DNA of 43,495 bases from Calditrichota bacterium (lineage in GTDB: Bacteria; Calditrichota; Calditrichia; RBG-13-44-9; J075). The notes under the pieces were generated by a model. That model ran no database searches and was not told where the DNA came from. It was given only the letters and a program-made list of their open reading frames with translations. Position numbers and translations under genes: made by a program. The stretch covers positions 1 through 43,495 of the forward strand of contig JAGRBF010000159.1 of the NCBI GenBank assembly GCA_020434205.1, given 5' to 3'. Below, piece after piece: positions 11,445 to 39,800 of this stretch; the first letter of the stretch is position 1, and every line of letters starts with the position of its first letter.

Positions 11445-12109
11445 TTACTCCTCCCCAACCGCCAAACTCCAAAAGCGCTTTAAGGGGAGTTCGGCTTTGA
11501 TTTCTTCATCGATATTGTCATACACCTTGAAGAGCTCTTCGATGATGGCGTCCTGATCCCAAATGCGCACCTTGAAGAATTGATTAGGGATCTCGCGCTC
11601 TACGCTGTTTTTGAAGCCATTCCAGGAGACCATTAGCCCGAATTCGGCCCCCGCATTTTGCATGGCTCCAATGAGTTGATCCAGGGTGGGACGGTCAACC
11701 GGCGCCAATCATCCAGGGTGTCGAAGAGGGTGTTGTGCATGACTCAGTTTCATCCTCAAGTAGAAAAGATTGGTGTGGGGCGCGGGCTTATCGCTAAGCA
11801 TCCCATCAGGCATATTGTTCCAAATTATGCTTTCGCCAAATTGTGTTTAACCAGATACAATTTTGGTCAGAGCTTGGATTTCACCGAATCAAACAAATCC
11901 GGATTTTCAATCTCATACATACGGGGCATGGTCTCTAATAACCAGCCTTTTTTGTCGATAAGATCCCTATTGCGTACAAAGCGATCAACAAGGGTATTCA
12001 TGGCTTCCATTTGCTGGATTTCTGTCATCATTGGATTGTTCATGTAGCGGGTTCGAATCAGTTGTATCAGAGCGTCATCAAATTCTAACCCACTTTGTCT
12101 GGCCGACAA
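11445..12109 (-). pseudogene. Decayed Mrr-like (PD-(D/E)xK) restriction endonuclease remnant, split over at least two frames
   Basis: ORF 11445..11708 encodes only a C-terminal tail resembling the end of Mrr_cat domains (..VDRPTLDQLIGAMQNAGAEFGLMVSWNGFKNSVEREIP...VRIWDQDAIIEELF..). It has a TTG pseudo-start directly after an in-frame TGA. ORF 11867..12109 is in another frame, and the stretch between them is broken by stops. Confidence 0.45.
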
Positions 12110-13184: not shown

Positions 13185-13277
13185 TTTCAGCTCCTTTATG
13201 TTTCTTTGCCGTGAAAGCAGATACATTTTAATTTTCCCTAAGCTTTGCCTGGTTTTCGAGGCAATGAAAACTTTCAA

Positions 13278-14018: not shown

Positions 14019-14109
14019 GTAGCCGTCTCTCGCTCTCCAACATCCCGATTGCCTTCATTGATACTCCCCAAGGACTTTTTACCGCCCGCGCTTAATTTTT
14101 GGCAATGGT

Positions 14110-15108: not shown

Positions 15109-15186
15109 TTTTTCTCCCTTTCTTTTGATCCTCAGGCCATGCTGAAGGTTTGCCAGCCATGTCTCTCAGACATTCATGATGAACAT

Positions 15187-17898
15187 TTACTCGATGAAAC
15201 GGTTTTGATAATCCACAGATTTATTCCAGAACTTTTTGAGTATTATCATACTTTTCTCACCCAGGGAATGCCCACAGCTTTTGTTTTGGCATTTCCAAAA
15301 ATCACGGTTTTGACTGAGGATCTCGCCACATTTAGGGCAGGAGGCAATTTTTTTGTCATGATGCTCTTTGCAGCAGGCATGACAATCCTGACAAACCAAC
15401 CAGTTGTTGTGACACCTTGGGCAATCACGGCTATCAATGATGTGATTGTTTTCGCCGGAACAATCCGGATTTAAGCAATGGGTAAGTCTAACAATCTCCT
15501 CGAACTGTGAGCATTCCTGGTTTGAGCACTTAAACAAAGGAACCGCATAAAAACCAACCCGTTTCGGTTCAAAGGGCTCTGGCCTGAGCAAGTTTTTACA
15601 AGCTCGACACTCCAACCGATTCAGAATTTCATTCATTCGATTGGCCCAGCCAGCATATCTGGCATAAATGCGGTGAATGTCTTTTTGGGGGTTATTGGAT
15701 GTTATAATCCCAATAGCCGGTAAAATTTCACAAAGAGTCCACTGGTGTGGTGGCAGGTCAAAGTCAGCTTCGCGGTTTGGTTTACTACAGATTCTACCCC
15801 GACACCAAAAAGAAGGATACTTTTTCTGAGTATATTCATTTCGGTCTTTATTAAAAAATGGCTCTTCCTTCCAAAAATTTCCCTCGCAGAACCCGGATGG
15901 ACACAATGGATGGTTTGAATCTTGCTCCAGCCAAAAACTTCCCCCAAAACTTACGTATTTCCCCCGATAATCATATCCAATATCACCTTTATAGAATTTT
16001 CTACCATCACATGTTTTCAACAAATTCTCAATGGTGGGTTTAAAACTTTTTAAGGATTTAATAGACACATAAAAGGAAGTGTTTAATGCGATCTTAAAGT
16101 CTTCAAAGGATTTTTCACCCGATAGTAAAATCGCCTGCAATATGGACGCATTCAATTCAGTAAACTGTATTTGCGTTAATTGATTTTTTAAATCTGCGGT
16201 GGAAAATTTTCCATGATATACCGAATAAGCCCAATACCGAATCAAATCGGCCTGATAATGCTCTGGAAGTTCCTTGAGTATGTGGTTTAATTGGGCACAG
16301 TCGTTTGCTGAAATACGCCCCAGAAAGGCCCTCCACACGACTCCTTTACCTTCTTGCGACTGCTTTCCAGCCAACCGTTCAAATGTTTCCTGAAGGTCAT
16401 GGCTGCCGGCTTCAATTTTGTCTAATTCATGGTAAAAGCTGCAATGAGGAAGAGACCTTGCCATATCTGGAAATTCAAAATCGACAAAATATTGTTCCGC
16501 ATACATTTCGTTTGGAAAGATTTGGAGCCATTTTAACCGTTCATCCCGGTCAAGTTTTGAAAAGTGGGCAAAGAGCTTTTTCTCAAAAGTTGCCAATTTA
16601 GATCTGGGAAGACTTTTGGATTGAATGGTTTGCGCAAGAATATTGAATTCCTGATGTCCGATGAGATCCAAGTTGTTTATGGTCTCAATTAGAAGATTCT
16701 CCTCGGTGATGATTTCCAATAGCGATATCAGGAGAATTGCAGGCAATTGAAAGAAAAGGGATAATTGAGAGGGTGAAACTTCAGGCAATTTGTCTACAAA
16801 ATATCTCAAATGTTCTTTTGATAGGTGTCTTGTCTCGGTTGGGTTACTGTGCAGGAATTGGAGTATCCCTGTGGTTACCCCCTGCAAATCACCATAGTTC
16901 TTTCCGTTTTTACGAAAGAAATGAAGAACAATCTCTAAGTCGCTTACCGATTGAATCTGGACCTGGTTGAGGATTATCCCCGAAATTTCAGGGTCGTTGG
17001 CAAGCTCGACCATCTTGAGTTGGACTGCTACAGGAAAATCGGACAAATCATCTAATAAAGGGTTGACAATCATTTGCCAGATTCGTTCCAGGCGATGATT
17101 GTCCTCAAATGAATTTGCCGATAAAAAAGCATCAGCAAGCAAAATTGTCTTCGAATCCCACTTGACCTCAATCAGGCATTTTTCCAGTAATTCCTGGCTG
17201 TTTAGAAACCGGCTGATAGCCAGTTGTAATGAAAAGTCTAGATTTGAAAAGGTCCTGATGATGTTAACACTGAAATTCTCCGGGACAAGGCTGGCCAATG
17301 TCTCATCCTCAATCAATTTTTGGATCAATTGTACGGAGTTGCCACTTTGCCTGAAATCCCATTTAGCCAGGAGATGGGTAACCAAACCCCGAAATGCATC
17401 AATCCTTGCCAGGTTCAACAAATCATTCGGATTAACCATCTCAAATGTATCAATCAGAATCTCATTGATACGCTCTTGCTGAGTTTGAGAAAACTGGGCA
17501 AGTAAATCGAAACGTTTTCGTTGGATAATGACCCGGCAGGAAGCTTCTAACTCTGATTGGTCAAAATCGACTTTTCTGCGAAGTAAATCTTCCAAAATGG
17601 TGAGTGCGATGGGGAAGTCCCAACAAGCAGTTAAAGTCTTTCGCCAGAGCTCTGGCCTTGATTCTGATATCAATTCAACTTTTCGACCTCTCAAACCCTC
17701 TTCGCGCTTCTCCAGTCGAAAAGAAACCGGTACCCCTTCAAAGTATTGATGGGGGTTTTGGAAGGCATCCTTCACTCGAAAAAAGACGTCTCCTTCACAA
17801 GGCTGTGTCTCCGACCTTGCCGAATGAATGAATCCGAAACCATTCTTTTCGTAATCGAGGAATTTTACCAGACCAAAACAAAGCTCTTTGTCATGCAT
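15187..17898 (-). CDS. 903-aa protein of unknown function: N-terminal cold-shock (CSD/OB) domain, long helical middle, C-terminal multi-zinc-ribbon region
   Basis: N-terminal GLVKFLDYEKNGFGFIHS matches the CspA-type GxVKWFnxxkGFGFI motif. The C-terminal ~200 aa hold about 9 CxxC/CxxH pairs (..LECRACKNL..FKCSNQECS..HCLNPDCSG..IIDSRDCPRCH..CQDCHACC..CPKCGEIL..WKCQNKSCGH), the last resembling a topoisomerase-type C4 finger. No P-loop. Paralogue of 37587..39800. Confidence 0.7.
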   Translation of the reverse strand: MHDKELCFGLVKFLDYEKNGFGFIHSARSETQPCEGDVFFRVKDAFQNPHQYFEGVPVSFRLEKREEGLRGRKVELISESRPELWRKTLTACWDFPIALTILEDLLRRKVDFDQSELEASCRVIIQRKRFDLLAQFSQTQQERINEILIDTFEMVNPNDLLNLARIDAFRGLVTHLLAKWDFRQSGNSVQLIQKLIEDETLASLVPENFSVNIIRTFSNLDFSLQLAISRFLNSQELLEKCLIEVKWDSKTILLADAFLSANSFEDNHRLERIWQMIVNPLLDDLSDFPVAVQLKMVELANDPEISGIILNQVQIQSVSDLEIVLHFFRKNGKNYGDLQGVTTGILQFLHSNPTETRHLSKEHLRYFVDKLPEVSPSQLSLFFQLPAILLISLLEIITEENLLIETINNLDLIGHQEFNILAQTIQSKSLPRSKLATFEKKLFAHFSKLDRDERLKWLQIFPNEMYAEQYFVDFEFPDMARSLPHCSFYHELDKIEAGSHDLQETFERLAGKQSQEGKGVVWRAFLGRISANDCAQLNHILKELPEHYQADLIRYWAYSVYHGKFSTADLKNQLTQIQFTELNASILQAILLSGEKSFEDFKIALNTSFYVSIKSLKSFKPTIENLLKTCDGRKFYKGDIGYDYRGKYVSFGGSFWLEQDSNHPLCPSGFCEGNFWKEEPFFNKDRNEYTQKKYPSFWCRGRICSKPNREADFDLPPHQWTLCEILPAIGIITSNNPQKDIHRIYARYAGWANRMNEILNRLECRACKNLLRPEPFEPKRVGFYAVPLFKCSNQECSQFEEIVRLTHCLNPDCSGENNHIIDSRDCPRCHNNWLVCQDCHACCKEHHDKKIASCPKCGEILSQNRDFWKCQNKSCGHSLGEKSMIILKKFWNKSVDYQNRFIE

Positions 17899-18276
17899 AG
17901 GTAATCAATTTTGAATAGATGTGATGCAATCAGTAAAAATGAATCGAAAGACAATAAAGATAAACCGGCCCGGAGGAAGTGTGTCAACCTTTACAAGATG
18001 CCCTAATTATGCAGGGTGAACCTTGACCCATGCAGCTAATTATCGGAATTTTTTCCTAAAATTCGCATATTGCGCTTTTGGAGTGAGATGCAGAACGGTT
18101 TTTGCGCCAAAGGCGTTTTGTGATTTTCTCTCTTTCTCGCACCATTTTTCGCTTGAATCAACTATCAATTCGAACTACTTTTCCGCAAGCCATTTGGGTG
18201 GGTGTGCTTTCCCCTCTTACCATTTTCCATTAAGCTGCACGTTCTGATGAGCCGGTTAAAAAGGAGTTAACCTCTC

Positions 18277-21099
18277 TTGTCGCTGTCACCTATTCCCATA
18301 GCCCCGGGAGCCCGGGTTCTGGTCCGCGATGCCGAATGGCTGGTGAGCCGGGTAGACCGCACCCAAAATGGAAATCAGGCCATTACCGCCATCGGTCTCT
18401 CGGAATTGGTGAAGGATAAGGAAGCTATTTTCCTGACCCATATCGACCGCGATATCAAGGTGATGGACCCGGCTAAAACCCGCATTGTCCCCGATGCCTC
18501 TCCCCAATTCCGGGAAGCCAAACTTTATATCGAAAGCCTCCTCAGGCAAACCCCACCGACAGATGAGCGCATTTACCTGGGACACCAGGCGGCCATCGAT
18601 CCGGTGCCTTATCAGCTGGATCCCGCTCACCAGGCTCTTAAACAACCGCGCCAGCGCATCCTGATCGCCGATGCGGTCGGGCTGGGGAAAACCATCGAGT
18701 TGGGCATCCTGCTCAGCGAGTTGATCGCCCGAGGCAAGGCGCGGCGTATTCTGGTGCTGGCGGTGAAAAGCATGCTGACCCAGTTTCAGAAGGAACTGTG
18801 GTGCCGGTTTACCATTCCCCTGACCCGCCTGGACTCGCTGGGCATTAAACGCATCCGCAGCCACATTCCCACCAACCACAATCCGTTTTATTATTTCGAT
18901 AAGACCATTATCTCCATAGACACGCTCAAGCAGGACAGCGAATACCGCACCTACCTGGAGAATTGTTTCTGGGACGTGATCGTCATCGACGAGGCCCACA
19001 ATGTGGCCGAACGCGGGACCCGCTCAATGCGCGCCCGTCTGGCCCGTCTGCTTGCCAGCCAGTCGGATACCCTGATCATGCTTACCGCCACCCCTCACGA
19101 CGGTCGTCCGCGCTCTTTCGCCAGCCTGATGAATATGCTCGATCCGACCGCCATCGCCGATCCCGAGCACTACGGCCCGGAGGATATCCGGGGGCTGTTC
19201 ATCCGGCGCTTCAAGAAGGACATTATTGATCAGGTGGGAGATGCTTTCCGTCAGCGTCATATTGCGGTAAAGAAAGCCCAGGCCAGTCCCGCGGAAGAGG
19301 CGGTATTTGCCTTTCTTGCCGATCTCTCTTTCGCCCGTCTGGATCAGCGCCGCGGACCGGGCCAGTTGTTCAAAACCACCCTGGAAAAGGCCCTTTTCTC
19401 AAGCCCGGCCGCCTGCCGGCAAACGATCGCCAATCGCCTGCGCCGCCTGGAAAAAGAGGAGAGTCCGGAGGCCCTTGCCGATCGGAAGCACTTGCGTGAA
19501 TTGGAGCGGTTGTTGAGCGAAATTGGTATAGGGGATTTCACCAAATATCAGGCTTTGCTGGCCGGGATTCGCGAGAATCTTCAGTGGAACGGCCGGGACA
19601 GCGAGGATCGCCTGGTTATTTTCACTGAACGCATCGAAACCCTCAAATTTTTGGATGAAAATCTGCGCAAGGACCTGGGTCTGAAGGACAAGCAAATTGC
19701 CCAGCTGCGCGGGGATATGTCGGATGTGGATCAACAGGCGGTGGTGGAGCGCTTCGGCAAGGGGGATGATCCCCTTCGTTTGCTGATTGCCAGCGACGTG
19801 GCTTCGGAAGGGATCAATCTGCACTACCAGTGCCATAAGATGATTCACTTCGATATTCCCTGGTCGCTGATGGTCTTTCAGCAGCGCAACGGACGGATCG
19901 ACCGCTACGGCCAGAAACATACCCCCTTCATCGTTTATCTGATTACCGAAAGCGGGCACAATAAAATCCGGGGAGATGTGCGCATTCTGGAACTGCTGAT
20001 TGAGAAGGACGAGCAGGCGGTGCGCAATATCGGAGACCCCTCGGCATTAATGGGAGTCTATAACATTCAGCAGGAAGAGGACATCACCGCCCGGGCTATT
20101 GAAAGCGGGGAGGGCGCCCAGGCTCTGGAAGCGGCCATGAGCAGCCCCCGCACCGCCAATATGATGGAACTGGTGATGAAAGAGGCTCAGGTTGCCCCCT
20201 CGCCGGATTCGCCCACCGGGGAGCGCTTTTCGCTCTTCGCGGATGATTACCATTACCTGAAAACAGCGCTGGGCCATCTGCAGCAAGGGGAAACCCTGCA
20301 GGTCAGCTTTGACGATGCCCGGAACACCGTTAATTTAACCCCGCCGAAGTCGCTGGCCCATCGCCTTAAACGCCTGCCCCGCGAGATGCGCCCCGACCGG
20401 GGTGAGTTTGTGCTGACCGCCGATCGCATGCAGGTTCAGGCGGCCATGGATCGGGCCCGCCGCGAGGAAAGCAGCTGGCCGGATATCCAGCTGTTGTGGT
20501 CGCTACATCCCATGCTGCTGTGGCTGAACGACACGGTGCGGGCCGCTTTCGGCCGCATGGAAGCCCCGCTGCTGCGACTTTCTTCCCTCAAGGAAGACGA
20601 ATGCTTTTTTCTGATTTCCGGGCTGTTGCCCAACCGCAAGAGCCATCCCCTGGTGTACCGCTGGTTTGGGGTGGGATTTGAATCGGGGGAATTCCGGGAA
20701 ATCCTCCCTCTGGAAGCACTGCTGGAAAAAACCGAACTGCACCGCCGGGACTTTGCCAACACCGGGGTTAATGATCCGGTCCCTGCGGAAATGCCCATCC
20801 TGCTGGAGAGAGCCCTGGAAAAAGCCCGGTCCCGGATGGAAGAAGAGCGCGTCCAATACCAAACCCAAATGCGTCCCCGGCTCAAAGACCATCTGCAGCG
20901 CCTGAGCACCCTGGAGCAAAAGCAACTGGAGCAGGCTAAAATCAATTCGGAGACGGGGAAACTCAGCCAGACCGAATACGGACGGACCCAGCGGCAAATC
21001 GCCCGGGTGTTTCAGAACCACCTCACCTGGATTGAAGACACCCTGGAAACCGGGGATACCCCTTACCTGCAGGTGGTGGCGGTGATGCTGGGACGGTAG
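18277..21099 (+). CDS. drmD: SNF2-family helicase (DISARM DrmD-like)
   Basis: TTG start with AAGGAG at 18261-18266. Motif I ADAVGLGKTIE, motif II VIVIDEAHNV (DEAH at 18988-18999), LTATPHDGR, and helicase C motifs ..LLIASDVASEGINLH.. and ..QRNGRIDRYGQ... The symbol is an analogy call, not a verified orthologue. Confidence 0.8.
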   Translation: MSLSPIPIAPGARVLVRDAEWLVSRVDRTQNGNQAITAIGLSELVKDKEAIFLTHIDRDIKVMDPAKTRIVPDASPQFREAKLYIESLLRQTPPTDERIYLGHQAAIDPVPYQLDPAHQALKQPRQRILIADAVGLGKTIELGILLSELIARGKARRILVLAVKSMLTQFQKELWCRFTIPLTRLDSLGIKRIRSHIPTNHNPFYYFDKTIISIDTLKQDSEYRTYLENCFWDVIVIDEAHNVAERGTRSMRARLARLLASQSDTLIMLTATPHDGRPRSFASLMNMLDPTAIADPEHYGPEDIRGLFIRRFKKDIIDQVGDAFRQRHIAVKKAQASPAEEAVFAFLADLSFARLDQRRGPGQLFKTTLEKALFSSPAACRQTIANRLRRLEKEESPEALADRKHLRELERLLSEIGIGDFTKYQALLAGIRENLQWNGRDSEDRLVIFTERIETLKFLDENLRKDLGLKDKQIAQLRGDMSDVDQQAVVERFGKGDDPLRLLIASDVASEGINLHYQCHKMIHFDIPWSLMVFQQRNGRIDRYGQKHTPFIVYLITESGHNKIRGDVRILELLIEKDEQAVRNIGDPSALMGVYNIQQEEDITARAIESGEGAQALEAAMSSPRTANMMELVMKEAQVAPSPDSPTGERFSLFADDYHYLKTALGHLQQGETLQVSFDDARNTVNLTPPKSLAHRLKRLPREMRPDRGEFVLTADRMQVQAAMDRARREESSWPDIQLLWSLHPMLLWLNDTVRAAFGRMEAPLLRLSSLKEDECFFLISGLLPNRKSHPLVYRWFGVGFESGEFREILPLEALLEKTELHRRDFANTGVNDPVPAEMPILLERALEKARSRMEEERVQYQTQMRPRLKDHLQRLSTLEQKQLEQAKINSETGKLSQTEYGRTQRQIARVFQNHLTWIEDTLETGDTPYLQVVAVMLGR

Positions 21100-21117
21100 G
21101 CAGGGCCACATTTTGAT

Positions 21118-21152
21118 CCCCTAACCCCCTTAAGAAGGGGGAATTAAAGGGG
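21118..21152 (+). promoter_or_regulatory. GC hairpin in the SNF2-methyltransferase intercistronic gap
   Basis: CCCCCTT-aag-AAGGGGG (21125-21141) is a perfect 7-bp stem. It is nested in an outer CCCCT/AGGGG pair (21118-21122 / 21148-21152). No downstream T-run, so it is not a classical terminator. Confidence 0.3.
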
Positions 21153-21183
21153 GTCAAAACCAGAGCAGAAACAAGGAAGGCTA

Positions 21184-24100
21184 ATGGCCATCGATCTGAG
21201 CGGTATTAACAACGAAAATGAATTTTACGCCCATCATTATCTCAGCACCTTGCTGGAGAATGACCTGAAGGGGGTAATGGCGCTCTGGAAGGAGCGCGAG
21301 GAGCAGGAGGCGGATTACATCCCGCCGGACCGGGCCTTGGGTAATCTCTATCGTCCTTATTTCCAAGCCCGTAGCCGCCTGCAAGGCCTGCGAAACCCCC
21401 TCGTTCAGCGGGAACAACAGGGAGAAATCCTGCAAACCCTGCTGGAGCTGCTGGGATTTCCCTGGCAACCTCGCGAAATCCGCCTGGAGGATGGCCTGCT
21501 CTGTCCGGTGCTGGCCACCCTGAACGACCCGGCCGGGGCCCCGCAGCTATGGGTCCTGGAAATGCCCTTTCCCGGAGAGGAAGATCAATCGCTTTTTGAG
21601 CTGGCTCTGAATGAGGGAGACACGGGGGAAGCCCCTGTGGATGGGATGCCGGGAACGGTGCTGGATTTAATCAACAGGCATATTTTTGCCCAGGAAGAAC
21701 CGCCCCGCTGGCTAATTCTGGCCGGCTTTTATCAGGTGATCCTGGTCGACCGCAGTAAATGGGCCCAGAAGCGCCACTTGCGCTTCGACCTGGCGGAAAT
21801 TCTGGGCCGCCGCGAGGCCTCCACCCTGCGGGCCACCGCCGCCCTGCTGCACCGGGACAGCATCTGCCCGGAAAGCGGGCCCAATTTGCTGGACACCCTG
21901 GACGAAAAAGCCCATAAGCACGCCTTCGCGGTTTCCGAGGACCTCAAATACGCCGCCCGGGAGGCGGTGGAGCTGTTGGGCAACGAGGTGATTTACTACC
22001 TGCGCGAGGTGCGCAAGGAGCGCATCTTCGAACGCCCCGAGCTGGCCGCCCAACTGAGCAGCGAATGCCTGCGCTACCTCTATCGCCTGCTTTTCCTTTT
22101 TTACCTGGAAGCGCGTCCCGAGCTGGGCTTTGCTCCCCTGAAAAGCGATGCCTATCGCAGCGGCTACAGCCTGGAGGCCCTGCGGGAATTGGAAATGCGT
22201 CCCCTCAACAACGAGCGGGAGCGCAACGGCTATTATCTGCACCACTCTCTGCAAACCCTCTTCGATCTGGTTTATCAGGGGGTCAATTTCGAAGTGAAGG
22301 AGGGAAAGCTGGACTTCGAGGATAATCCGCTCTCCCACGAGTTTCGCATGGCGCCCCTCAAATGCCACCTCTTCGACCCGGAGCTTACCCCGCTGCTGAA
22401 GGGGGTGAAATTCCGCAACCGGGTCCTGCAGCGGGTGGTGGAATTGCTTTCCCTCTCCCGCCCGGCCCGGTCCGGCAAACGCCGGGAACGCCGGGGGCGG
22501 ATCAGCTATGCCCAGCTGGGGATCAACCAGTTGGGGGCGGTTTACGAAGGGCTGCTCTCCTACGCCGGTTTTTTCGCCCAGGAGGACCTCTACGAGGTTA
22601 AGAAAGCCGGCACCGACCCCACCGAGTTGGAAGCAGCTTATTTTGTGCCGGGGGCGGATCTGCCCCTTTACAAGGAAGACGAAAAAATTTACAACCAGGA
22701 CGGCAGCCTGCGCAAACACCCCCGCGGCAGCTTTATCTACCGCCTTTCGGGACGCCAACGCCAGAAGTCCGCTTCCTACTACACCCCGGAGGTGCTCACC
22801 CAATGCCTGGTGAAATACGCCCTGAAGACCTTGTTAAAGGAGGAGATGAGCGCCGAGGAGATTCTCCGCTTAACGGTTTGCGAGCCGGCCATGGGCAGCG
22901 GGGCCTTCCTGAACGAGGCGGTTAACCAGCTGGCGGAGGCCTATTTGCAGCGCCGCCAGAAGGAACTGGGGGAAACCCTGGGGCCGGAGCAGTACCTGCG
23001 GGAACGCCAGAAGGTTAAGATGTATCTGGCGGATAACAACGTTTTCGGGGTGGACCTCAACCCCACCGCCATCGAGCTGGCCGAGGTGAGTTTGTGGCTA
23101 AACAGCATTTACGCCGGCAGTGAGGAGCAGGCCGCCTTTGTGCCCTGGTTCGGGATGCAGCTCAATTCCGGCAATTCCCTGATCGGAGCCCGACGGGAGG
23201 TTTTTGAGGGGCACCAGCTGGGCCGGGAGCGCCAATGGCTGAGCGCGGTGCCGCAAGCGGTTTCCCGGCAGGATTCTCCCTCGCCGACCTCGGTTTACCA
23301 CTTTCTGCTGCCGGACGAGGGCATGGCCTTTTATAACAACAATGTCATTAAAGCCATGGCCGGGGAGGCCCTCAAAAGGATGGCCGCCTGGCGCAAGGAC
23401 TTTTGTGCCCCCTTTTCGCCGGGGCAATTGAGCACCCTGCAGAGTCTTTCCCGGGTGGCTGATGAACTGTGGGCCGAGCAGGCCATCCAGCAGCAGCGCA
23501 TCCGGGAGCGCACCACCGATCCTATCGCCATTTACGGGCGACCCGCCAAAGCCGGGCGACGCCCCAGCACCACCCGGGAAAAGGACAAGATCTTCGACCA
23601 GGAAATGCACAGCAAGGGAGTGCGCAACGCCAGCCCTTACCGGCGCCTCAAGCTGGTAATGGACTACTGGTGCGCCCTGTGGTTCTGGCCCCTTGAAAAA
23701 GCGGATCTGTTGCCCAGCCGGGATGAATTCCTGCTGGAGGTAAAGCTTATCCTGGAAGGGCAAAAGGCGATGAGCGGGGTGGTTGGGGAACAAACCACCC
23801 TTTTCCCCACCACCCAACCCCAGCAGCTGGCCCTGCAGTTGCTGGACAAACACGGCTTTGTGGACCTTGCGGCGTTGCAGGACTACCCCCGCCTGCGCCT
23901 GGTGCGGGAGCTGGCCACCCGCTACCGCTTTTTCCACTGGGAGCTGGAATACGCCGACCTTTTTGCCGAACGGGGTGGGTTCGACCTGGTATTGGGGAAT
24001 CCCCCCTGGGTGAAGTTGGAATGGAGCGAAGGGGGCATTTTGGGGGACTTCGAACCCCTCTACGACATCCGCAAATTCAGCGCCTCCCGCTTAAACAAAC

Positions 24101-32165: not shown

Positions 32166-32194
32166 AAACTTGTTCCCAAAGCCTTGGATAAAAT

Positions 32195-34333
32195 ATGACT
32201 TCATCTTCAGTCCCAACCAACAAGCCCGTTAACGTTGCCATATCCGTGGACCTGCTCAAGGCTTACGCCGGGATTCCCCGTTCACAGCAGGGCAAAATCC
32301 GGGAGTTCATTGAAAAATTCCAGGAGAATCCCACCTCTCCGGGGATCAACTACGAAAAGATTCAGCAATGGAAAGACCCCAACCTGCGTTCCGTGCGCAT
32401 CGACCAACAATACCGTGGGGTAGTCCTCAAACCCGATAGCGGAAACCTCTTTATGCTCCTTTGGGTGGCTACTCATGACGAAGCATACCAGTGGGGCATG
32501 GACAAGCGCATTAAAATTCATCCCACCACCGGTTCCTTGCAGGTCGTATCCACCGAATTGGTGGAGCCGGAGCCTCAACGTCAGGATAAAGCCCGGGTGC
32601 CAGGACTTTTTGATGCCTACAAAGACCGGCAACTGGCGCGTCTGGGGGTGCCTGAAGAACTGTTGCCGCTGGTGCGCCATATCCGCAACGAGCAGCAATT
32701 GGATGTTCGTTCCCACGAGCTGCCTCAAGAAGTTTATGAGGCCCTGTTGATGCTGGCTGCCGGTTACAGCTATGAGGAAGCGGTGCTGGAAATTGAAGCC
32801 CCTGAACAACCGGTTGATACGGGAGATCTTTCCGAAGCCCTTCAGCATCCGGACTCGCAGCGGCGCTTTCATGTTCTGACCGATGCCCAGGAATTGGCCG
32901 AGATTCTCAATGCCCCGTTAGCGTTGTGGCGGGTTTTCTTACACCCATCCCAGCAGAAGCTGGTCAGTCAACACTTTAACGGTCCCGCAAGGGTGCTGGG
33001 TGGGGCAGGCACCGGAAAAACCGTGGTAGCCATGCATCGCACCAAATTTCTGGCTGGCCGCTGTGGCAAGGGTGAGCGCGTTCTGGTCACCACCTTTACC
33101 CGCAACCTGGCCGAAGACATTCGCACCAATCTCCACAAGATTTGTTCCCTGGAGGAAATGAAGCGCATTGAGGTCATACATTTCGATGGGTGGGTGGCCA
33201 GTTTCCTCCGAAAAAACGGCTACGACTTTCAATTGGTTTACGGCCGGGAGGAATCGGAGGCCTATTGGAACAACGCCCTCAATGTGGCGCCCCCGGCACT
33301 GGATTACGACCGTTCCTTCTATCAGGCAGAGTGGGAACAGGTTATCCAGGCCCAGGGCATTGTCACCCGGGAGGCGTATCTCAAAACGCTTCGCAGTGGC
33401 CGGGGGGTTCGGCTCAGTCGCATTGAGCGCAGCCGCATCTGGCCGGTTTTTGAAGAATACCGCGAGCAGTTAAATGCCCATGGCAAAAAGGAATTCGTTG
33501 ATGCCACCCGGGATGCCCGGCGCCTGTTGGAGCAGCAGGGCGATGTGCTGTCCTACCGCGCCATTGTGGTCGATGAAGCCCAGGACTTTAGCAGTGAGGC
33601 TTTTCGTTTAGTGCGCACCATGATCCCCGAATCGCGGGCTGACCTCAGTAACGACATTTTCATTGTCGGCGATGCCCATCAGCGCATATACGGGCACAAA
33701 GTGGTACTGGGACACTGTGGCATTAACATTCGTGGCCGGGGGCGGCGCCTCAAGATCAACTACCGCACCACCGAAGAAACCCGTCGTTGGGCCATAAATT
33801 TACTGGAAGGCAAGGATATTGACGATCTGGACGGTCAACCCGATCATCAGCGGCTCTACAAATCCTTGATACATGGGGTTGAGCCGGGGCTTCACGGGTT
33901 TGACAGCTTTGCCGCGGAAACCGCCTTTATCCGGGAACACATTTCGCAACTGATCGGGGAGGGGGCATTGCCAGAGGGCATTTGTTTGACTGCCCGGACC
34001 CATTCCTTGCTGAAACAGTATGAGGGGGCCTTATTGTCGGCGGGTTTAGAAACCTATACCATTCGTCATGAGCAGGCCGAAGAAATCCGTCACCCTGGCA
34101 TTCGCTTGGCCACCATGCACCGGGTTAAGGGGATCGAATTCGACCATATGATCATTGCCGGGGTAAATAGCGGCATCGTTCCCCTGGAGATTACCCGGGG
34201 CAGCAGCGAAGACCCTGCCATCGCGGCGGATCACGACCTCAAAGAGCGGGCCCTGCTTTACGTTGCCGCCACCCGCGCCCGCAAAACGGTGGTGATCACC
34301 TGGTTTGGGGCGGGTAGTGAGTTTGTGGTGTAG
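32195..34333 (+). CDS. UvrD/Rep-family (SF1) helicase with N-terminal RelE/ParE-like domain
   Basis: Walker A GGAGTGKTVVAMHR, motif II IVVDEAQDF, C-terminal ..TMHRVKGIEFDHMII.. and ..LLYVAATRARK... The N-terminal ~110 aa read ..FIEKFQENPTSPGINYEKI..LRSVRIDQQYRGVVLKPDSGNLFMLLWVATHDEAY.. (RelE/ParE-like pattern). Confidence 0.85.
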   Translation: MTSSSVPTNKPVNVAISVDLLKAYAGIPRSQQGKIREFIEKFQENPTSPGINYEKIQQWKDPNLRSVRIDQQYRGVVLKPDSGNLFMLLWVATHDEAYQWGMDKRIKIHPTTGSLQVVSTELVEPEPQRQDKARVPGLFDAYKDRQLARLGVPEELLPLVRHIRNEQQLDVRSHELPQEVYEALLMLAAGYSYEEAVLEIEAPEQPVDTGDLSEALQHPDSQRRFHVLTDAQELAEILNAPLALWRVFLHPSQQKLVSQHFNGPARVLGGAGTGKTVVAMHRTKFLAGRCGKGERVLVTTFTRNLAEDIRTNLHKICSLEEMKRIEVIHFDGWVASFLRKNGYDFQLVYGREESEAYWNNALNVAPPALDYDRSFYQAEWEQVIQAQGIVTREAYLKTLRSGRGVRLSRIERSRIWPVFEEYREQLNAHGKKEFVDATRDARRLLEQQGDVLSYRAIVVDEAQDFSSEAFRLVRTMIPESRADLSNDIFIVGDAHQRIYGHKVVLGHCGINIRGRGRRLKINYRTTEETRRWAINLLEGKDIDDLDGQPDHQRLYKSLIHGVEPGLHGFDSFAAETAFIREHISQLIGEGALPEGICLTARTHSLLKQYEGALLSAGLETYTIRHEQAEEIRHPGIRLATMHRVKGIEFDHMIIAGVNSGIVPLEITRGSSEDPAIAADHDLKERALLYVAATRARKTVVITWFGAGSEFVV

Positions 34334-34438
34334 AGGGTAGGGAAAACCAAAACCGCCGGCCCTGGCTGTACGGCCTTTGGCTAAACACTTGCGAAAATAT
34401 TAATTGTTTACTTTGCTATCCGGATTGTGGAGGAAGAA

Positions 34439-35917
34439 ATGGATTCCATGGTAATTTCATATCTAAATTTGGCTGTCGTTTTTGTCTTGGTTCTTCTTAT
34501 TGCGGCTATAATCTCAAAACTGGGAAAATTACATGCGCTACAACTGGCCCATCGGGAGGAGGGGCGGGACTTATCGGATATCGTTGCTAAACTGCAGCCT
34601 GCTCTGCAAAACCTGAATAGCGCTCAGGAACGGGTCGAAGCCAATCTGGCAAGCATGACCCAACGTTTGGAAACAACAGAACAGCTTGGCAACCGATTGG
34701 AGGAGCAACTCTGCGCAATGGATAGAAGCCTGAGCGGGATACTGACGAATGTGGAGCACCTCCAGGAAGAGAGTGATGCCTCGCGCCAGAATCACCGAAC
34801 AGAAATGGCCAGGGTTAACCGGCATCTTGGTGTCCTCGTTCCCGAAATTGCCGGAAATTCCACCCTAGCCCAACTTTCCTTCGACCAGGCCTTGAATCAG
34901 GGAAAAATGCTAGGGGTTATTAAACAACAATCCCTTTCTAAACTGGATCGTAAACTGGGCTCTATTTTTGCCGGAGTGCTGAATGGGCGGAGTGTCCAAT
35001 TGGTAGAAGCCGTTCACCGCATAAAAGATGGCCGGATTGTCATGACCCTGACCAAAGAAGGTCAAAAACTCTTGAATAGCGGTAAAGCAGAGCTCATGTA
35101 CGATAAAGCCGGTAACCTCTTGTCTACCATCCGCGATGCCAAACACAAACAATTTATTAAACAGTTCAAGGGGGTTCCCGCGAACCAGGTCGGGAGATTC
35201 GCAAAGGTTGGCAACCTGATTATTAATGCTGCACATATTGTCTCGGCAGCCGATATGCTGGCACGAATGAAGGTCATGGACGGCAAAATGAATTTATTGA
35301 TTGAAGGACGGCGAATCGACAAAATGGGGGAACTTGAAGCCATTTACCGCCGGGCTCAGGAGATTTTGAACCGGGACGAGTTGGCGCCCCAGGATATCAC
35401 GGAACTGCGTGGCATCCACCTTAATTTGATGAAATTGCGGGTGACCTGGGTCCGTGAGGTATCGTACCGCCTGGATCAAATTGAAGATCCCAAAAACAGA
35501 AATTTCTTCGCTCGTAATCTGGGTCTTTTGGAAAAAACCCGAAATCAGGATCAGAGCATCCGTCAAAAAGTTAGTGATTTTGAACAGGAGCTCTTTCTCA
35601 TCGACTTTACAATAGTATTTGACGTTACCCTCTGCAGTTTTTTGGAGATTTCCTTGAAGCTGGACCAGGATTTGGACCAGCTTAAGCGAATAGAGAAGGA
35701 ACTGGCTTCAAAAGTTAACTACCTGACCGGAAAGTATGAGAATTTTTCGCTGGACGAGCCACTAGCCATAATGCAGCAGGTTTTACAGCGCACCAAACAT
35801 CTTATGCCCATCGCCACGGGCGAAAACGCTCTGGTGCAAATAGAAGAGACTGGAACAACAGTCGAAGACCCCGGCGGGTCGGAGGCTTATGGGCCGGAAA
35901 TTTTGCAGGCGGAATAG
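34439..35917 (+). CDS. N-terminally membrane-anchored coiled-coil protein, unknown function
   Basis: Start set to ATG 34439 (GGAGG 5 nt upstream). TM helix ISYLNLAVVFVLVLLIAAIISKL is followed by ~100 aa of heptad-like Q/E/L-rich sequence and then an uncharacterised domain. Confidence 0.6.
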   Translation: MDSMVISYLNLAVVFVLVLLIAAIISKLGKLHALQLAHREEGRDLSDIVAKLQPALQNLNSAQERVEANLASMTQRLETTEQLGNRLEEQLCAMDRSLSGILTNVEHLQEESDASRQNHRTEMARVNRHLGVLVPEIAGNSTLAQLSFDQALNQGKMLGVIKQQSLSKLDRKLGSIFAGVLNGRSVQLVEAVHRIKDGRIVMTLTKEGQKLLNSGKAELMYDKAGNLLSTIRDAKHKQFIKQFKGVPANQVGRFAKVGNLIINAAHIVSAADMLARMKVMDGKMNLLIEGRRIDKMGELEAIYRRAQEILNRDELAPQDITELRGIHLNLMKLRVTWVREVSYRLDQIEDPKNRNFFARNLGLLEKTRNQDQSIRQKVSDFEQELFLIDFTIVFDVTLCSFLEISLKLDQDLDQLKRIEKELASKVNYLTGKYENFSLDEPLAIMQQVLQRTKHLMPIATGENALVQIEETGTTVEDPGGSEAYGPEILQAE

Positions 35918-35990
35918 AAAAACAAAAACGAATGGAATCCTTTAATAAAGTTGTTTATACAAAATCAAAATTAGACCCGGAGAATCATCA

Positions 35991-36452
35991 ATGTCTTCTT
36001 CAAACTCCCAGCCACATCCAGAACTGAGTAAAAGCGATTTCTACCACAGTTTGCGCCAGCAGGTTCGTTCCTGGCTACAGAAAGATGGCAAGAAACATAA
36101 ATGGTCCGAATATTTGTTGTTGGCCCCGGACCTGTTTCACCTGCTCTGCAAACTGACCTTCGATAAACGGATCCCGACCTCGGAAAAAGCGAAGCTGGCG
36201 TCGGCAATCGCCTATTTTGTCTCACCGATTGACGTCATCCCTGAAGCTATTTTTGGGGTGGGGGGATATGTGGATGATGTTGCTTTGGCTGCCTTTGTAT
36301 TGAATTCCCTGATGAATAATTCCGATCCGGAAATAGTAAAGGAACACTGGGCTGGCGAGGGTGATGTCTTAGACCTGATTGGGCAGATAATTTCGGTTGC
36401 GGATCAAATGGTGGGAAGTGGGGCTTGGAAAAAATTGAAAGAGATTATCTGA
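35991..36452 (+). CDS. DUF1232 (YkvA-like) domain protein
   Basis: Signature AIAYFVSPIDVIPEAIFGVGGYVDDVALAAFVLN matches the Y..sP.D.IPD...G..DD motif of DUF1232. GGAGA lies 7 nt upstream of the ATG. Confidence 0.7.
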   Translation: MSSSNSQPHPELSKSDFYHSLRQQVRSWLQKDGKKHKWSEYLLLAPDLFHLLCKLTFDKRIPTSEKAKLASAIAYFVSPIDVIPEAIFGVGGYVDDVALAAFVLNSLMNNSDPEIVKEHWAGEGDVLDLIGQIISVADQMVGSGAWKKLKEII

Positions 36453-36480
36453 CAAATCCGCTCGATATCAGGGAATAACA

Positions 36481-36524
36481 ATCCCCAATAAAATCGGATT
36501 TTCCGTTCCGATTTTATTGGGGAT
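36481..36524. terminator. Perfect 17-bp hairpin between convergent genes (putative bidirectional terminator)
   Basis: ATCCCCAATAAAATCGG (36481-36497), 10-nt loop, CCGATTTTATTGGGGAT (36508-36524). It lies between the 3' ends of 35991..36452 (+) and 36609..37415 (-). No clean U-tract follows on either strand. Confidence 0.5.
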
Positions 36525-36608
36525 GTCTTATACTCGCTAAAGGAATCGAGTCTTGAATTGAGCCAAATAATTTGAAGGATCAAGCAGTTCCCTGAAAGCA
36601 GGACTACT

Positions 36609-37415
36609 CTAAAACCGCCGGCCTTTGATATAACGCATCAGGGCCATGGGCAGGAAATCGTCCAGGCGCTCCACTTCCCGGTCGCTCAATTCGATAAGAT
36701 GGATGCCGTTTCGCCGATAACTGGCCACTTTTGCTTCTTTCTTTGCAAGGTAGGCAGGGTCATTCTCCCTACCCCAGAATTCGATGTAAACATCGCCCTC
36801 AGGCAGGTAAAAATCCGGATAGTAAATCTCATTCGTGTTATCCGGCATGATCAGCTTCTTCTCGTAAGCATGAACAAGGCGATGGTGATAAAACCAATTG
36901 TCAATCAATACTTCAGCCCGGGATCGGACGTAATGACCATCCTCGCATAAGAAATTTGCAGGATACTTTTTGCGATAATCATCTTCATCGAAAAGGGCAA
37001 TGGGCCTTGGTGTTGCAGTCTGAGAAATGGTGCCGGCAGGCCTTTTTTTCTCTCCATGGCTATAATCGTTAGCATATTTCTTCCTGGTCTGGGGGCTGTG
37101 GTTGTTTCGTCGCTGTTCCTGAAGTTCCAACAACTCATTCAGATCCGCTTCTATTCGCTCAATCAGATAAGAATCTTCAAAATTTTCATTCAACGTTTCC
37201 GCCATAGCCAGAAAGCGAATCAGGTCCTGGTTGCTAATCCTGGCAGAAGGATTGTTTTTCAGCTCGTCTCTGAAATAGAAGTAAGAATCCCTGATTTCGT
37301 GGCGGGCATAATCGTTGTATTCCCGTTCAATCAGTTCTTGCTTGGTATGAAAACACTTTCTGCACAATGGAAAGCCAAAAGCCTCTTCATCGCAGATAAG
37401 ACATCCATCGCCCAT
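36609..37415 (-). CDS. Zinc-ribbon + PD-(D/E)xK-type nuclease-like protein
   Basis: GGAGG lies 6 nt upstream of the ATG. N-terminal CLICDEEAFGFPLCRKCF (CxxC-x9-CxxC). C-terminal ..DGHYVRSRAEVLIDNWF..YEKKL..IYYPDFYLPEGDVYIEFWG.. matches the S.E ... PDF ... ExW/K arrangement of restriction-endonuclease-fold domains (as at the N-terminus of HelD/helicase IV-like proteins, TnsA-like). Confidence 0.65.
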   Translation of the reverse strand: MGDGCLICDEEAFGFPLCRKCFHTKQELIEREYNDYARHEIRDSYFYFRDELKNNPSARISNQDLIRFLAMAETLNENFEDSYLIERIEADLNELLELQEQRRNNHSPQTRKKYANDYSHGEKKRPAGTISQTATPRPIALFDEDDYRKKYPANFLCEDGHYVRSRAEVLIDNWFYHHRLVHAYEKKLIMPDNTNEIYYPDFYLPEGDVYIEFWGRENDPAYLAKKEAKVASYRRNGIHLIELSDREVERLDDFLPMALMRYIKGRRF

Positions 37416-37586
37416 TTGGCGCCTCCGTGAACCCGTCGAATTTCGTTGCTAAAGATTCGCAATCTTTGATCTTTGAATTAGTGATATCTCCCAACATTTT
37501 CTGCTGAAATTATTCGACAAATGGGATTGGGTAAACAGGAAAAGTGATAAGTTTCGGTTTCATGGCTGATTCGCCCTAAATGGGGA

Positions 37587-39800
37587 TCAAACCTTCCTTA
37601 CCGGGAACTTCTGGGAGTGGAATTTTTTGGTTAAATTATTCTCGGAAATTTTAAACCCGCACTGCCGGTTGCCGCAATAAACGAAACGTTTTCCATTCTT
37701 TTCAAACAAAATAAGCGCGGAACCGCATTCAGGGCAAAACCCCACCGGATTTTCTTCTGCACAGCTTTTGCAGCAGCTGCCACAATTCCGACAAATATAA
37801 CGTTTGTTGCGGCATCGCTGCCGAAGATCCCTTGAGTCAATTATTGTGTAGCAGCCAAAGCCAAGGCAATGGTTAATGTAATAGTCCTTTCCATTCTCGG
37901 GGCAATTGGGAGAGACACAATGGAAAACGGTAACGCGATAAGCTGCCGTGAGCCTCTCTTTAACAAAGGCTTTTTGTTCAGGTGAATACCTGGCGTATTC
38001 AATATTTCTGGCATATTCTAAATTGGGAACCATTAAACTCGAGCATCCGCGACATTCCAGGACCTCAATTATTTCCTTAAGCCGGTTAAAATAACCAGCG
38101 AGCTTTATGGGAAAGTCCTCTCTTGCAGGATCTCCATTTTTCGAATAATGGAACCCAAGGTGCTCAAACCAGTCGTAAATATTGTAATCCCAATAATGCT
38201 TTCCGGTTTGTGGCAAGACCTCAGGGTTAGAGCAAATTTCGCCCCGGCAGAGATACTTCTTACCATCATCTTCATTTTCAAGCCACAAAAACGCCTCGCA
38301 TGAAAGTCCCCGCCGACCCATAGTGGCGCATTGTGGAAAAAGCCGAAAAACCCCTTCTTCATTGATGTCAATCTGCTTTTCTCCCAATGTCGACCAGAGT
38401 TTCGTGGCAAATGCCTCCATGGTCGTTTCAAGGGAATTGCCACTCAATAGCAATTGAAATAGCTCCGCGAGGGCAAAAAATTCAAACTTTGTTTTGAGAC
38501 GGTCGGAGTGAGCGTAAACAGAATAAAATTCCAGATTTTTTTCGAATAAGTGTTTTTTAAAGATATACGGCTCAGCCAGACTCCAAAGCTGTTTATCTTT
38601 GAGCAACTGTTCCAATTTGGGCAAAATTTGCTTTTTTGCAAAAGGAGACAGTTGCTCGTCCTCGCCTCGAAAAATAGTTCTTACAACCTGATCATACCCG
38701 CTTGATAGAGTCTCCCGAACTTCTTTCCCTAAATTTAGCCCCTTTAATTGCAAAGCCAATGCAACGGTTGCCGGGAGTTGATCAATATTCTCCTTGAGGA
38801 ACGTGATTTTAAGGTTGGTCTCCAAAGAAGAAATAAAATTAAAAATAGTCTCTTCATTCTCTTTTAAAATGCCATTTGAAATAAGTTCAAGCTTAACACC
38901 ATTAGCCAGAATACTCTCAATCGATAATCCCAGAATGGGGTGAAAAAAAATCTTGCTCCAGTTGGGAGCATCCCTTATCGCATAGAGAAATCTTTCCAGG
39001 ATTTCAAAACTACTGTTGAGCCTAATGCTAATGGCTTCTATCAGGGTTGTATGTTTATCCGGTTCAGCGAAAAGAAAGCTGAGATAGCCTGGGTGATAAA
39101 TGAGATATTTAACAGGCACAACGCCGTATCTTACCAATTCATGTAAATCAATTGGAGATATTTCCGTCATAAATCTGGAAATATTTTTGTTGATATAATT
39201 GGCGACTTTGGGGTCCTTAAAATAAATTTGTTTTTGAGGCGACTGAAGTAGGAAGGCCAGGTTTTTGGCAGTCAATTTGTTGCAGATTAAAATGGGAAGA
39301 GGTGGGGCAATTTGTTCTTTCCCGGTTAAAAACGTATCAATTTTTTTGAATAGCTCGTCCGGACCATAAAATGAAATGTCATCTTCATTCTGGGCATAAA
39401 GGGCAGGCACCATTTCACAAAATTCGAAAACATTCATTTCGCCCAGAATTTTGGTGGTGATCAATTGTCTTTGGCTTTTTTTGAAATCAAGCTGTGCAAA
39501 AAATCGCTGATGATTCTCCTTATTGGTTCTTAGTAAATTGAAGAAAATCTTCAGGTGATTTAGGTCTTCATTGGCGATGTGAACATTGGCTGCAGCTTTT
39601 TTGCCCTTCCGCTCCACTTCAATAAAAAGTATGATGTCATTGTCGTTGAGGCTTTCCACTCCCTGAAGTTCATTCCTGTGAACGTAAATATTCTCCCCGA
39701 GCATGGATTCTGCAAAACCAAAATTGTTGATGCAATCCAATTTGCGATTATATCCGCCAAACCACTTGACCAACCCAATCTGGTAACCCTTAGCGTCCAT
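37587..39800 (-). CDS. 737-aa paralogue of the 903-aa cold-shock-domain / helical / multi-zinc-ribbon protein
   Basis: GAGGA lies 5 nt upstream of the ATG. N-terminal GLVKWFGGYNRKLDCINNFGFAES is a CSD motif with an insertion. The C-terminal blocks align with the 903-aa protein: CRGEICSNPE / CRGRICSKPN; LAGYFNRLKEIIEVLECRGC / YAGWANRMNEILNRLECRAC; HCLGFGCYTIIDSRD / HCLNPDCSGENNHIIDSRD; CPECGSAL / CPKCGEIL. Confidence 0.7.
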   Translation of the reverse strand: MDAKGYQIGLVKWFGGYNRKLDCINNFGFAESMLGENIYVHRNELQGVESLNDNDIILFIEVERKGKKAAANVHIANEDLNHLKIFFNLLRTNKENHQRFFAQLDFKKSQRQLITTKILGEMNVFEFCEMVPALYAQNEDDISFYGPDELFKKIDTFLTGKEQIAPPLPILICNKLTAKNLAFLLQSPQKQIYFKDPKVANYINKNISRFMTEISPIDLHELVRYGVVPVKYLIYHPGYLSFLFAEPDKHTTLIEAISIRLNSSFEILERFLYAIRDAPNWSKIFFHPILGLSIESILANGVKLELISNGILKENEETIFNFISSLETNLKITFLKENIDQLPATVALALQLKGLNLGKEVRETLSSGYDQVVRTIFRGEDEQLSPFAKKQILPKLEQLLKDKQLWSLAEPYIFKKHLFEKNLEFYSVYAHSDRLKTKFEFFALAELFQLLLSGNSLETTMEAFATKLWSTLGEKQIDINEEGVFRLFPQCATMGRRGLSCEAFLWLENEDDGKKYLCRGEICSNPEVLPQTGKHYWDYNIYDWFEHLGFHYSKNGDPAREDFPIKLAGYFNRLKEIIEVLECRGCSSLMVPNLEYARNIEYARYSPEQKAFVKERLTAAYRVTVFHCVSPNCPENGKDYYINHCLGFGCYTIIDSRDLRQRCRNKRYICRNCGSCCKSCAEENPVGFCPECGSALILFEKNGKRFVYCGNRQCGFKISENNLTKKFHSQKFPVRKV

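Follow-up and report, generated by a model that had tools for sequence, protein, structure and literature searches.

The described system closest to the locus reported here is ARMADA type II, which protects Escherichia coli (PMC12458937; bioRxiv 10.1101/2025.09.15.676423). In the available text of PMC12458937 its genes stand in a strict order and encode an SNF2/BrxHII-like helicase, a PglX-like methyltransferase, a YprA-like helicase with DUF1998 and a UvrD/GajB-like helicase; ArmD is described there with a RelE-like N-terminal domain and ArmC with a Vsr-type nuclease at its C-terminus. The present analysis concerns a stretch of 43,495 nucleotides from a Calditrichota bacterium (GCA_020434205.1, contig JAGRBF010000159.1, positions 1 to 43,495), referred to below as the window. 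Two of its genes, gene A (15187–17898, minus strand, 903 aa) and gene B (37587–39800, minus strand, 737 aa), bracket an island core that can be assigned to ARMADA type II, and both open reading frames (ORFs) are present as originally predicted from the sequence. We tentatively conclude that A and B belong to a large family, so far uncharacterised, whose members are accessories of translocase-based restriction-type immunity and travel with type I restriction-modification (R-M), BREX and ARMADA/type IIG-like systems, and that neither protein is the binding subunit of a two-gene system composed of a binder and a nuclease. The family and its C-terminal domain appear to be new, the ARMADA core is already known, and the pairing with nucleases on which the original prediction was built is unsupported.

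Architecture of A and B and of their family

The family is defined by a cold-shock domain (CSD), an all-alpha solenoid and a C-terminal domain of ~240 aa with an invariant Cys pattern and N-R and D-S-R motifs. A belongs to its A-type and B to its B-type. A protein identical to A (P0002) is annotated with a later start; the 903-aa start brings back a CSD-like N-terminal domain (residues ~9–75; 17674–17874, minus strand) that can be aligned with A-type relatives. In this alignment G9, K12, F13, D15, N19, F21, G22 and I24 of A are invariant, which amounts to 8 positions in the first 24 residues. Matches to hidden Markov models (HMMs) are weak: Pfam CSD (PF00313) scores 16.5 bits with A (E=0.0077) and 23 bits with B (E=7e-5), both below the gathering threshold of 27 bits, and A additionally shows weak CSD matches to PADLOC CSD_V (8e-6) and to the NCBIfam retron Se72 effector (5e-6). 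An AlphaFold2 (AF2) model, built for full-length B only and on 32 relatives (predicted local distance difference test score, pLDDT, 91.4; predicted TM-score, pTM, 0.71), places strands in residues 6–75 (39576–39785, minus strand), and the domain superimposes on E. coli CspA (1mjc) in Foldseek with a TM-score (TMt) of 0.83, a root-mean-square deviation of 2.6 and a probability of 1.0. Because the B model fits CspA and A aligns with its A-type relatives, the CspA-like motif noticed at the N-terminus of both proteins represents a real CSD despite the weak HMM scores.

In B the CSD is followed by an all-alpha solenoid (residues 80–495; 38316–39563, minus strand), predicted as helices only with a pLDDT of about 90, for which Foldseek gives weak ARM/HEAT-like matches such as 4rv1 and DNA-PK. 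Beyond the solenoid the model shows a zinc domain rich in beta structure (residues about 489–737; 37590–38336, minus strand). The long helical middle without P-loop that had been claimed for both proteins is borne out insofar as a solenoid is predicted in B and no Walker A motif occurs in A or B; the two middles have no detectable homology to each other. No Pfam match was obtained for either of them, BLASTP gives none between them, and the single hhalign alignment comprises the tail only.

The tails themselves, i.e. the Cys-rich C-terminal domain of A (residues ~627–903; 15190–16020, minus strand) and the multi-zinc domain of B, are homologous, and all of the motifs quoted from them in the original prediction were found. 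Residues 671–890 of A and 501–727 of B share 30% identity (BLASTP, E=2e-24), the rest of A and B being without a significant match, and the alignment of profiles made from A's and B's own relatives extends this to a probability of 100% with E=1.9e-38 (hhalign). The last 260 residues hold 21 of the 29 Cys of A and 20 of the 23 Cys of B. Across 118 family sequences 18 Cys are invariant together with N753, D822 and R824 (A numbering), and E672, D724, R754, Y804 and S823 are nearly so; A and B both keep 18 of the 18 invariant Cys plus N753/R754 and D822/S823/R824.

The tail core consists of about 200 residues with four Cys clusters and the HC..C..IIDSR motif, and is followed by a generic CxxC...CxxC zinc ribbon that makes up the last ~40 residues. 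Matches of this terminal ribbon are weak: DNA_ligase_ZBD (E=0.006), RpoM (E=0.0017, the best, although marginal) and Topo I, the top Foldseek hit, which is non-significant (E=0.5). No PDB relative of the tail core was found by sequence profile or, with the uncropped structure, by fold, and no Pfam or NCBIfam family and no PADLOC v2.0.0 model was found for the tail. A degenerate HNH/His-Me finger was considered and rejected, as hhalign against the HNH protein of the window returned a probability of 0.2% and Pfam HNH gave no match. We regard the C-terminal domain as a candidate new zinc fold.

A word-index protein search yielded almost no relatives, and the family emerged solely by an exhaustive HMMER profile search with the tail. 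Its best match was the gene A product (E=1.1e-98). At 50% identity the matches form 930 clusters at E<1e-3, 821 at E<1e-10 and 307 at E<1e-30, so that the family is put at a minimum of 930 clusters. Among the matches listed, the tail ends at most ~70 residues from the protein C-terminus in 151 of 152. Most full-length members have 550–1340 aa and fall into three subfamilies, the B-type with about 600–750 aa, the A-type with about 800–900 aa and a long type with 1000–1300 aa, some of the latter with HARP. A Pfam scan of 48 sampled members detected a CSD in 31 (E≤0.001, best 2e-15), HARP before the tail in 5 and IF2_N replacing the CSD in 2; a crude CspA/CspB HMM matches 90 of 131 long members, and one member carries two CSDs. 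In a B-type relative (P0167), an HRDC domain interrupts the first of the tail's zinc clusters and a short N-terminus resembling a winged helix-turn-helix (HTH) replaces the CSD.

In keeping with the original prediction, the family could not be assigned to a named system. Full-length PADLOC v2.0.0 matches are absent for A, B and ten diverse relatives, where only the 64-residue CSD_V model responds, and neither the profile searches nor AF2 and Foldseek assigned the family to any described system or function. Literature searches turned up no description of it, and the PGAP name for E. coli and Klebsiella members is ‘cold shock domain-containing protein’. Phage-borne copies were found neither in GenBank phages nor in IMG/VR. 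The family thus appears to be widespread and unnamed, and its tail to be new.

A and B had been called paralogues. They are homologues with one architecture, but the term is too strong: each clusters in a different subfamily and has closer relatives elsewhere, and the identity of ~30% is limited to the tail, so that a recent duplication can be dismissed. Their co-occurrence is nevertheless not attributable to chance, because the B-type is rare among species representatives (found by pattern scan in at least 17 of 185,579 such genomes) and yet the window holds two members of the family at a distance of 19.7 kb.

Genomic contexts

The neighbourhoods of the family were compared in 22 independent informative loci, obtained by three routes (genome pattern scan, metagenome scan and exact-protein look-ups). 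As raw tallies, restriction-type systems adjoin the family gene in 12 of the 22 and other defence-type genes in 5, while 5 have no defence neighbour. Defence-type neighbours are therefore present in 17 of 22 loci, in keeping with the proposed link to defence islands; stand-alone nucleases directly downstream, likewise expected, were not seen outside this window, the recurrent neighbours being type I R-M, BREX and ARMADA.

The context found in Enterobacteriaceae is a cassette in which a B-type gene lies in the order hsdM, hsdS, yecA-like gene, B-type gene, hsdR, M48 peptidase and (DUF262). The B-type gene is present in 265 of 5,426 complete E. coli genomes (4.9%), and homologues were found on 132 plasmids, 129 of them from Klebsiella and 128 predicted to be conjugative; the single plasmid context inspected shows this type I cassette again. 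In E. coli the cassette occurs with the gene, for a product of 620 aa (for example in strain 005008, NZ_CP058661), and without it (strain PSJ-29, NZ_AP027639, where the yecA-like gene abuts hsdR), and the matching hsdR type occurs in 554 genomes as compared with 265 for the gene; the latter is therefore an optional insert of ~1.8 kb in type I cassettes. Because cassettes without the gene also keep the yecA-like gene, the latter was rejected as a partner specific to the E. coli homologue. In the E. coli/Klebsiella cassette (L025, L026, L035) this yecA paralogue (UPF0149 plus SEC-C motif) always lies between hsdS and hsdR, with an M48/SprT-like peptidase after hsdR, and the cassette occupies an integrase island, adjacent to the native yecA/tRNA-Leu region and accompanied by DUF262 genes and Hhe.

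BREX provides the context in three marine bacteria (L010, L011, L024), where the gene adjoins pglZ-brxL or comes directly after brxL. Long-type genes were found next to an MmeI/PglX-like methyltransferase with DUF4007, within an island of type I R-M and reverse-transcriptase genes, and 4 kb from a type I hsdR; in one Pseudomonas locus McrBC-like genes and a WYL regulator flank the family gene. Among the A-type loci, one has an SNF2-NOV_C helicase downstream (L029) and another adjoins RloB/AAA_21. In three loci (L021, L023, L028) the family member is alone among housekeeping genes. Genes for VWA and TerB/TerB_C proteins adjoin family members in three unrelated loci (L011, 3–731; L013, 1556–2488; L001, 3309–5966), and a region identical to that of A occurs on metagenome contigs of sample SAMN08389218 (L002, L003).

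In the window itself, the plus-strand core between A and B consists of four genes. The first, armA (18277–21099), encodes an SNF2/BrxHII-like helicase (Pfam SNF2-rel_dom and Helicase_C; PADLOC DrmD, 2.6e-101, and BrxHII) and the second, armB (21184–25881), a PglX/type IIG-like N6 methyltransferase (Pfam Eco57I, N6_Mtase and MmeI_Mtase; PADLOC REase_MTase_IIG, 4.8e-281). They are followed by armC (25800–32165), whose product of 2121 aa is a YprA-like DEAD helicase with MZB/DUF1998 and a nuclease-like C-terminal region (Pfam DEAD, Helicase_C and MZB; PADLOC DruE, 1.5e-101), and by armD (32195–34333) for a UvrD/GajB-like helicase with an N-terminal extension of 248 aa (Pfam UvrD-helicase and UvrD_C; PADLOC GajB). 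Since gene order and domain content match the published description, the core at 18277–34333 is best classified as a complete ARMADA type II, a system already described. The 248-aa extension of ArmD has no Pfam or PDB match, and the C-terminus of ArmC shows a weak match to PADLOC ZorE/HNH (3e-8) and none in the PDB.

DISARM and Druantia were rejected as identities of the core in favour of ARMADA type II, to which the fusion of helicase and DUF1998, the order of the genes and the presence of a UvrD gene point; separate genes for the drmA helicase and drmB (DUF1998), as in DISARM, are absent, helicase and MZB/DUF1998 being fused in the one protein of 2121 aa. The armC ORF as listed shares its first 82 nt with the end of armB (25800–25881), and its true start may be further downstream. 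Immediately downstream of armD, at 34427–36452 on the plus strand, are genes for a 496-aa protein without family match (a weak coiled-coil-like match only) and for a 153-aa DUF1232 protein, which may be part of ARMADA or separate cargo.

Gene A and armA diverge from an intergenic region of 378 bp, and gene B lies 3.3 kb beyond armD. A second genome (L039, GCA_020434175.1, contig JAGRBH010000004.1) has an A-type gene (product P0027) divergent from and 346 bp upstream of armA. ArmA and ArmB of the two loci are each 63% identical, as against about 30% for the A-type proteins P0027 and A, so that the synteny of A-type gene and ARMADA is kept while the A-type sequence diverges much faster than ArmA and ArmB.

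The GC content is 0.56–0.60 in the ARMADA core and 0.41 in A and B, and it changes abruptly where armA starts and where armD ends. A reading of this step as proof of a later insertion of ARMADA between A and B was withdrawn, because the contrast recurs in L039, where as in the window the A-type gene lies well below the neighbouring ARMADA genes in GC, and because the family gene does not exceed its flanks in GC in any of the nine other loci measured.

Possible function and competing explanations

The architecture is one of nucleic-acid-binding parts (CSD, optional HARP, HRDC, IF2_N or second CSD, and zinc ribbons) combined with a solenoid, and no catalytic domain was detected. The best reading of these proteins is that of non-catalytic sensors or adaptors for single-stranded or branched nucleic acid which accompany translocase-based restriction systems. 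Invader nucleic acid that is single-stranded or branched, for example in replication intermediates, entering single-stranded DNA (ssDNA) or transcripts, would be recognised jointly by the CSD and the zinc module, and the solenoid would serve as a docking platform. The protein could then steer or stimulate the neighbouring helicase-nuclease machinery on such substrates, or block them sterically, and the restriction system carrying the gene would be extended or backed up.

Several observations weigh against this reading. In view of the five loci without defence neighbour, the protein either can do without a partner, or may act in trans, or may have no part in defence at all. The E. coli ARMADA II is reported to need its four genes only (available text of PMC12458937), and type I cassettes lacking the gene occur, so that any accessory role must be dispensable. 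The conserved polar residues E672, D724, N753, R754, Y804, D822, S823 and R824 could make up a catalytic site instead of a binding site. Operons of A-PLD-HNH and of B-PD-(D/E)xK would be compatible with the short gaps between these genes, in which no terminator is predicted (see below). Finally, the locus sample is small and of mixed retrieval routes, and its counts are raw tallies without an enrichment statistic.

A bolder version of the sensor or adaptor reading, which we consider possible but doubtful, is that the family constitutes a new class of plug-in sensor, in which the CSD and an unseen multi-zinc fold sense single-stranded or branched invader nucleic acid and the solenoid couples to HsdR, BREX or ARMADA; alternatively, the zinc domain may itself be a new enzyme, active once restriction is blocked. 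If the plug-in sensor were real, immunity based on the modification of double-stranded DNA would gain a second, structure-based discrimination of foreign from self. Should the family influence the restriction of phages or plasmids, bacterial immunity would have a widespread component without a name, present in about 5% of complete E. coli and on more than 100 Klebsiella plasmids, nearly all predicted to be conjugative, and an exchangeable accessory would be common to type I R-M, BREX and ARMADA. This bears on how modification-based systems handle ssDNA entry, replication intermediates and anti-restriction proteins. Natural E. coli strains with and without the gene in the same type I cassette make the question directly testable.

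An autonomous second-line effector or guard, PrrC-like in logic, is an unlikely alternative that deserves more weight than the explanations treated after it. It would be an abortive-infection or blocking protein residing in restriction loci and triggered by restriction inhibition or by phage nucleic acid, with a tail that has cryptic catalysis or sequesters nucleic acid. In the prr locus prrC lies between hsdS and hsdR, and the E. coli gene has this very position, where it is optional. The stand-alone occurrences imply that no neighbour is needed, the polar residues of the tail are invariant or nearly so in the 118 sequences aligned, and the A-type proteins diverge faster than the adjacent ArmA and ArmB, as described above. 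However, searches of Pfam, PADLOC, NCBIfam and PDB sequences and with Foldseek revealed neither a P-loop nor any fold of a nuclease, HEPN or other toxin, the test for HNH-likeness was negative, and all accreted domains are binders, not enzymes.

Even less probable, in our view, is a regulator of the neighbouring defence operon, for instance a CSD-based RNA chaperone, an antiterminator or a DNA-binding factor which tunes restriction genes, e.g. when a mobile R-M system enters a new host. CSDs are classic RNA-binding regulators. The enterobacterial gene lies within the operon just before hsdR, its start overlapping the upstream gene by 56 nt, and the A-type gene is divergent from armA across an intergenic region of ~350 bp in two genomes, which is typical regulator geometry. 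Against this, known regulators of defence islands such as WYL/BrxR or C proteins are far smaller than these proteins of 600–1300 aa with their solenoid and multiple zinc sites, there is no HTH domain, the HARP and HRDC accretions suggest DNA structures rather than transcripts, and half of the otherwise identical E. coli cassettes do without the gene.

The original prediction, in which A with PLD and HNH and B with PD-(D/E)xK were conserved nucleic-acid-binding subunits of two- or three-gene modules with interchangeable nuclease effectors, is now quite improbable. The nuclease genes as such were correctly recognised, and their domains are real. Downstream of A are a gene for a PLD-family protein (14110–15108, minus strand; PLDc_2, 4.8e-13; weak DrmC, 1.6e-8, and DpdK) and, after it, one for an HNH endonuclease (13278–14018, minus strand; Pfam HNH, 4.7e-7). 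Downstream of B is a gene for a zinc-ribbon and PD-(D/E)xK protein (36609–37415, minus strand; PADLOC PDC-S69, 2.2e-38 over residues 143–262). All are on the same strand as A and B, with gaps of 78 bp (A-PLD), 91 bp (PLD-HNH) and 171 bp (B-PD-(D/E)xK). Neither the interval from A to the PLD gene nor that from B to the PD-(D/E)xK gene contains a predicted terminator-like site. A strong terminator-like hairpin (18-bp stem; 36481–36524, minus strand) follows closely on the PD-(D/E)xK gene and would end a transcript of B and this gene. In a generous count, HsdR of the enterobacterial cassette and SNF2-NOV_C of L029 are also products of nuclease-bearing downstream genes.

What decides against such modules is the comparison with other loci. 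In none but the two loci of this window (2 of 22) is the family gene immediately followed by a stand-alone nuclease gene. The PLD gene is absent beside the five other A-type loci, among them L039, whose A-type gene occupies the matching position next to ARMADA, and no PD-(D/E)xK homologue was found beside any other B-type locus examined; the gene of P0005, the closest full-length relative of B, is followed by an unrelated 363-aa ORF without Pfam match. Other members are alone in housekeeping contexts, and the PD-(D/E)xK protein matches a PADLOC candidate of a single gene (PDC-S69). The PLD, HNH and PD-(D/E)xK genes are local neighbours, not conserved partners; they would be ordinary island cargo, maybe co-transcribed with A and B but not required by them. 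The PLD gene was also rejected as DISARM drmC, in view of the weak DrmC match, the opposite strand and the position of gene A between it and the core.

Least probable of all is a housekeeping or mobile-element protein of nucleic-acid metabolism, unrelated to immunity and incidentally located in the island, which the five loci without defence neighbour and the merely descriptive PGAP name would allow, but against which stand the patchy distribution of the family (in E. coli as well as for the B-type among species representatives) with its presence/absence polymorphism, its GC at or below that of the flanks and, for the A-type genes of the window and L039, well below that of the ARMADA genes, and its repeated embedding in R-M, BREX and ARMADA operons.

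Other genes of the window and comparison with known systems

To the left of gene A, a type IX secretion C-terminal sorting-tail protein (5428–6717, plus strand) and a lipoprotein-like ORF (12285–13277, minus strand) mark the left boundary of the island near 13.3 kb, and the two suggest a host of the Bacteroidota/FCB group. A separate two-gene candidate at 8611–11375 (minus strand) comprises the gene for a 601-aa AAA_15/DUF3696 ATPase (PADLOC NsnB, 2.7e-41; PDC-M55A; AriA-like), which overlaps the start of the gene for a 320-aa protein with weak MIT_C/PLD-like and BrxL-C-terminal matches. An 87-aa ORF at 11445–11708 (minus strand) matches only the C-terminal half of Mrr_cat (E=2.2e-6) and probably represents what is left of a truncated restriction endonuclease. 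At the window's left edge is a gene for a TPR-CHAT protein of 1086 aa (264–3524, minus strand), and in L039 a CHAT/nSTAND protein is encoded at 13182–15914, a few kb from the A-type gene; CHAT is a possible recurring neighbour.

Single parts of A and B have counterparts in known proteins. The N-terminal ~70-residue CSD is shared with cold-shock proteins and with the CSD effector of retron type V (Se72), to which the structural fit of B to CspA and the weak Se72 match of A attest. These, however, are single-domain proteins of ~65 aa, whereas the CSD makes up less than 10% of the 737–903 aa of A and B. No RVT domain was found in the 31 window ORFs scanned, and the NCBIfam retron score is 26.3 against a cut-off of 82. 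The likeness to the C-terminal zinc ribbons of topoisomerase I and to TFIIS/RpoM-type ribbons is restricted to the last ~40 residues of the tail. From ARMADA type II the locus differs in that genes for CSD-solenoid-zinc proteins are not among the four components described in the available text of PMC12458937.

Closer in theme are TOTE and TALON, which according to the same text contain TPR-CSD fusions, the fusion of TALON accompanying an ARMADA-like YprA helicase and a PD-(D/E)xK nuclease (Aravind et al. 2022, via PMC12458937). Here, too, helical repeats are combined with a CSD, and the CSD-solenoid proteins flank ARMADA II, one of them beside a PD-(D/E)xK gene. The multi-zinc tail does not appear in the TOTE description as available, the comparison being one of descriptions only, and a TATA-binding-protein gene, by which TOTE/TALON are recognised, was not found among the 31 window ORFs scanned against Pfam.

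In genomic arrangement the family resembles PrrC of the EcoprrI type I system, TgvAB of the Vibrio VPI-2 type I system and BrxU/GmrSD beside BREX, all of which are optional extra genes in or abutting a restriction operon. The position of PrrC between hsdS and hsdR is shared by the B-type relatives in Enterobacteriaceae, but not by A or B. PrrC combines an ABC-type ATPase with an anticodon nuclease, and TgvAB and BrxU are DUF262/GmrSD nucleases, whereas A and B lack a Walker A motif, the family gives no ATPase or nuclease match, and no sequence or domain relationship connects it with PrrC, TgvAB or BrxU. We therefore regard the likeness to TOTE/TALON as a thematic echo, and that to PrrC, TgvAB and BrxU as a resemblance in genomic logic.

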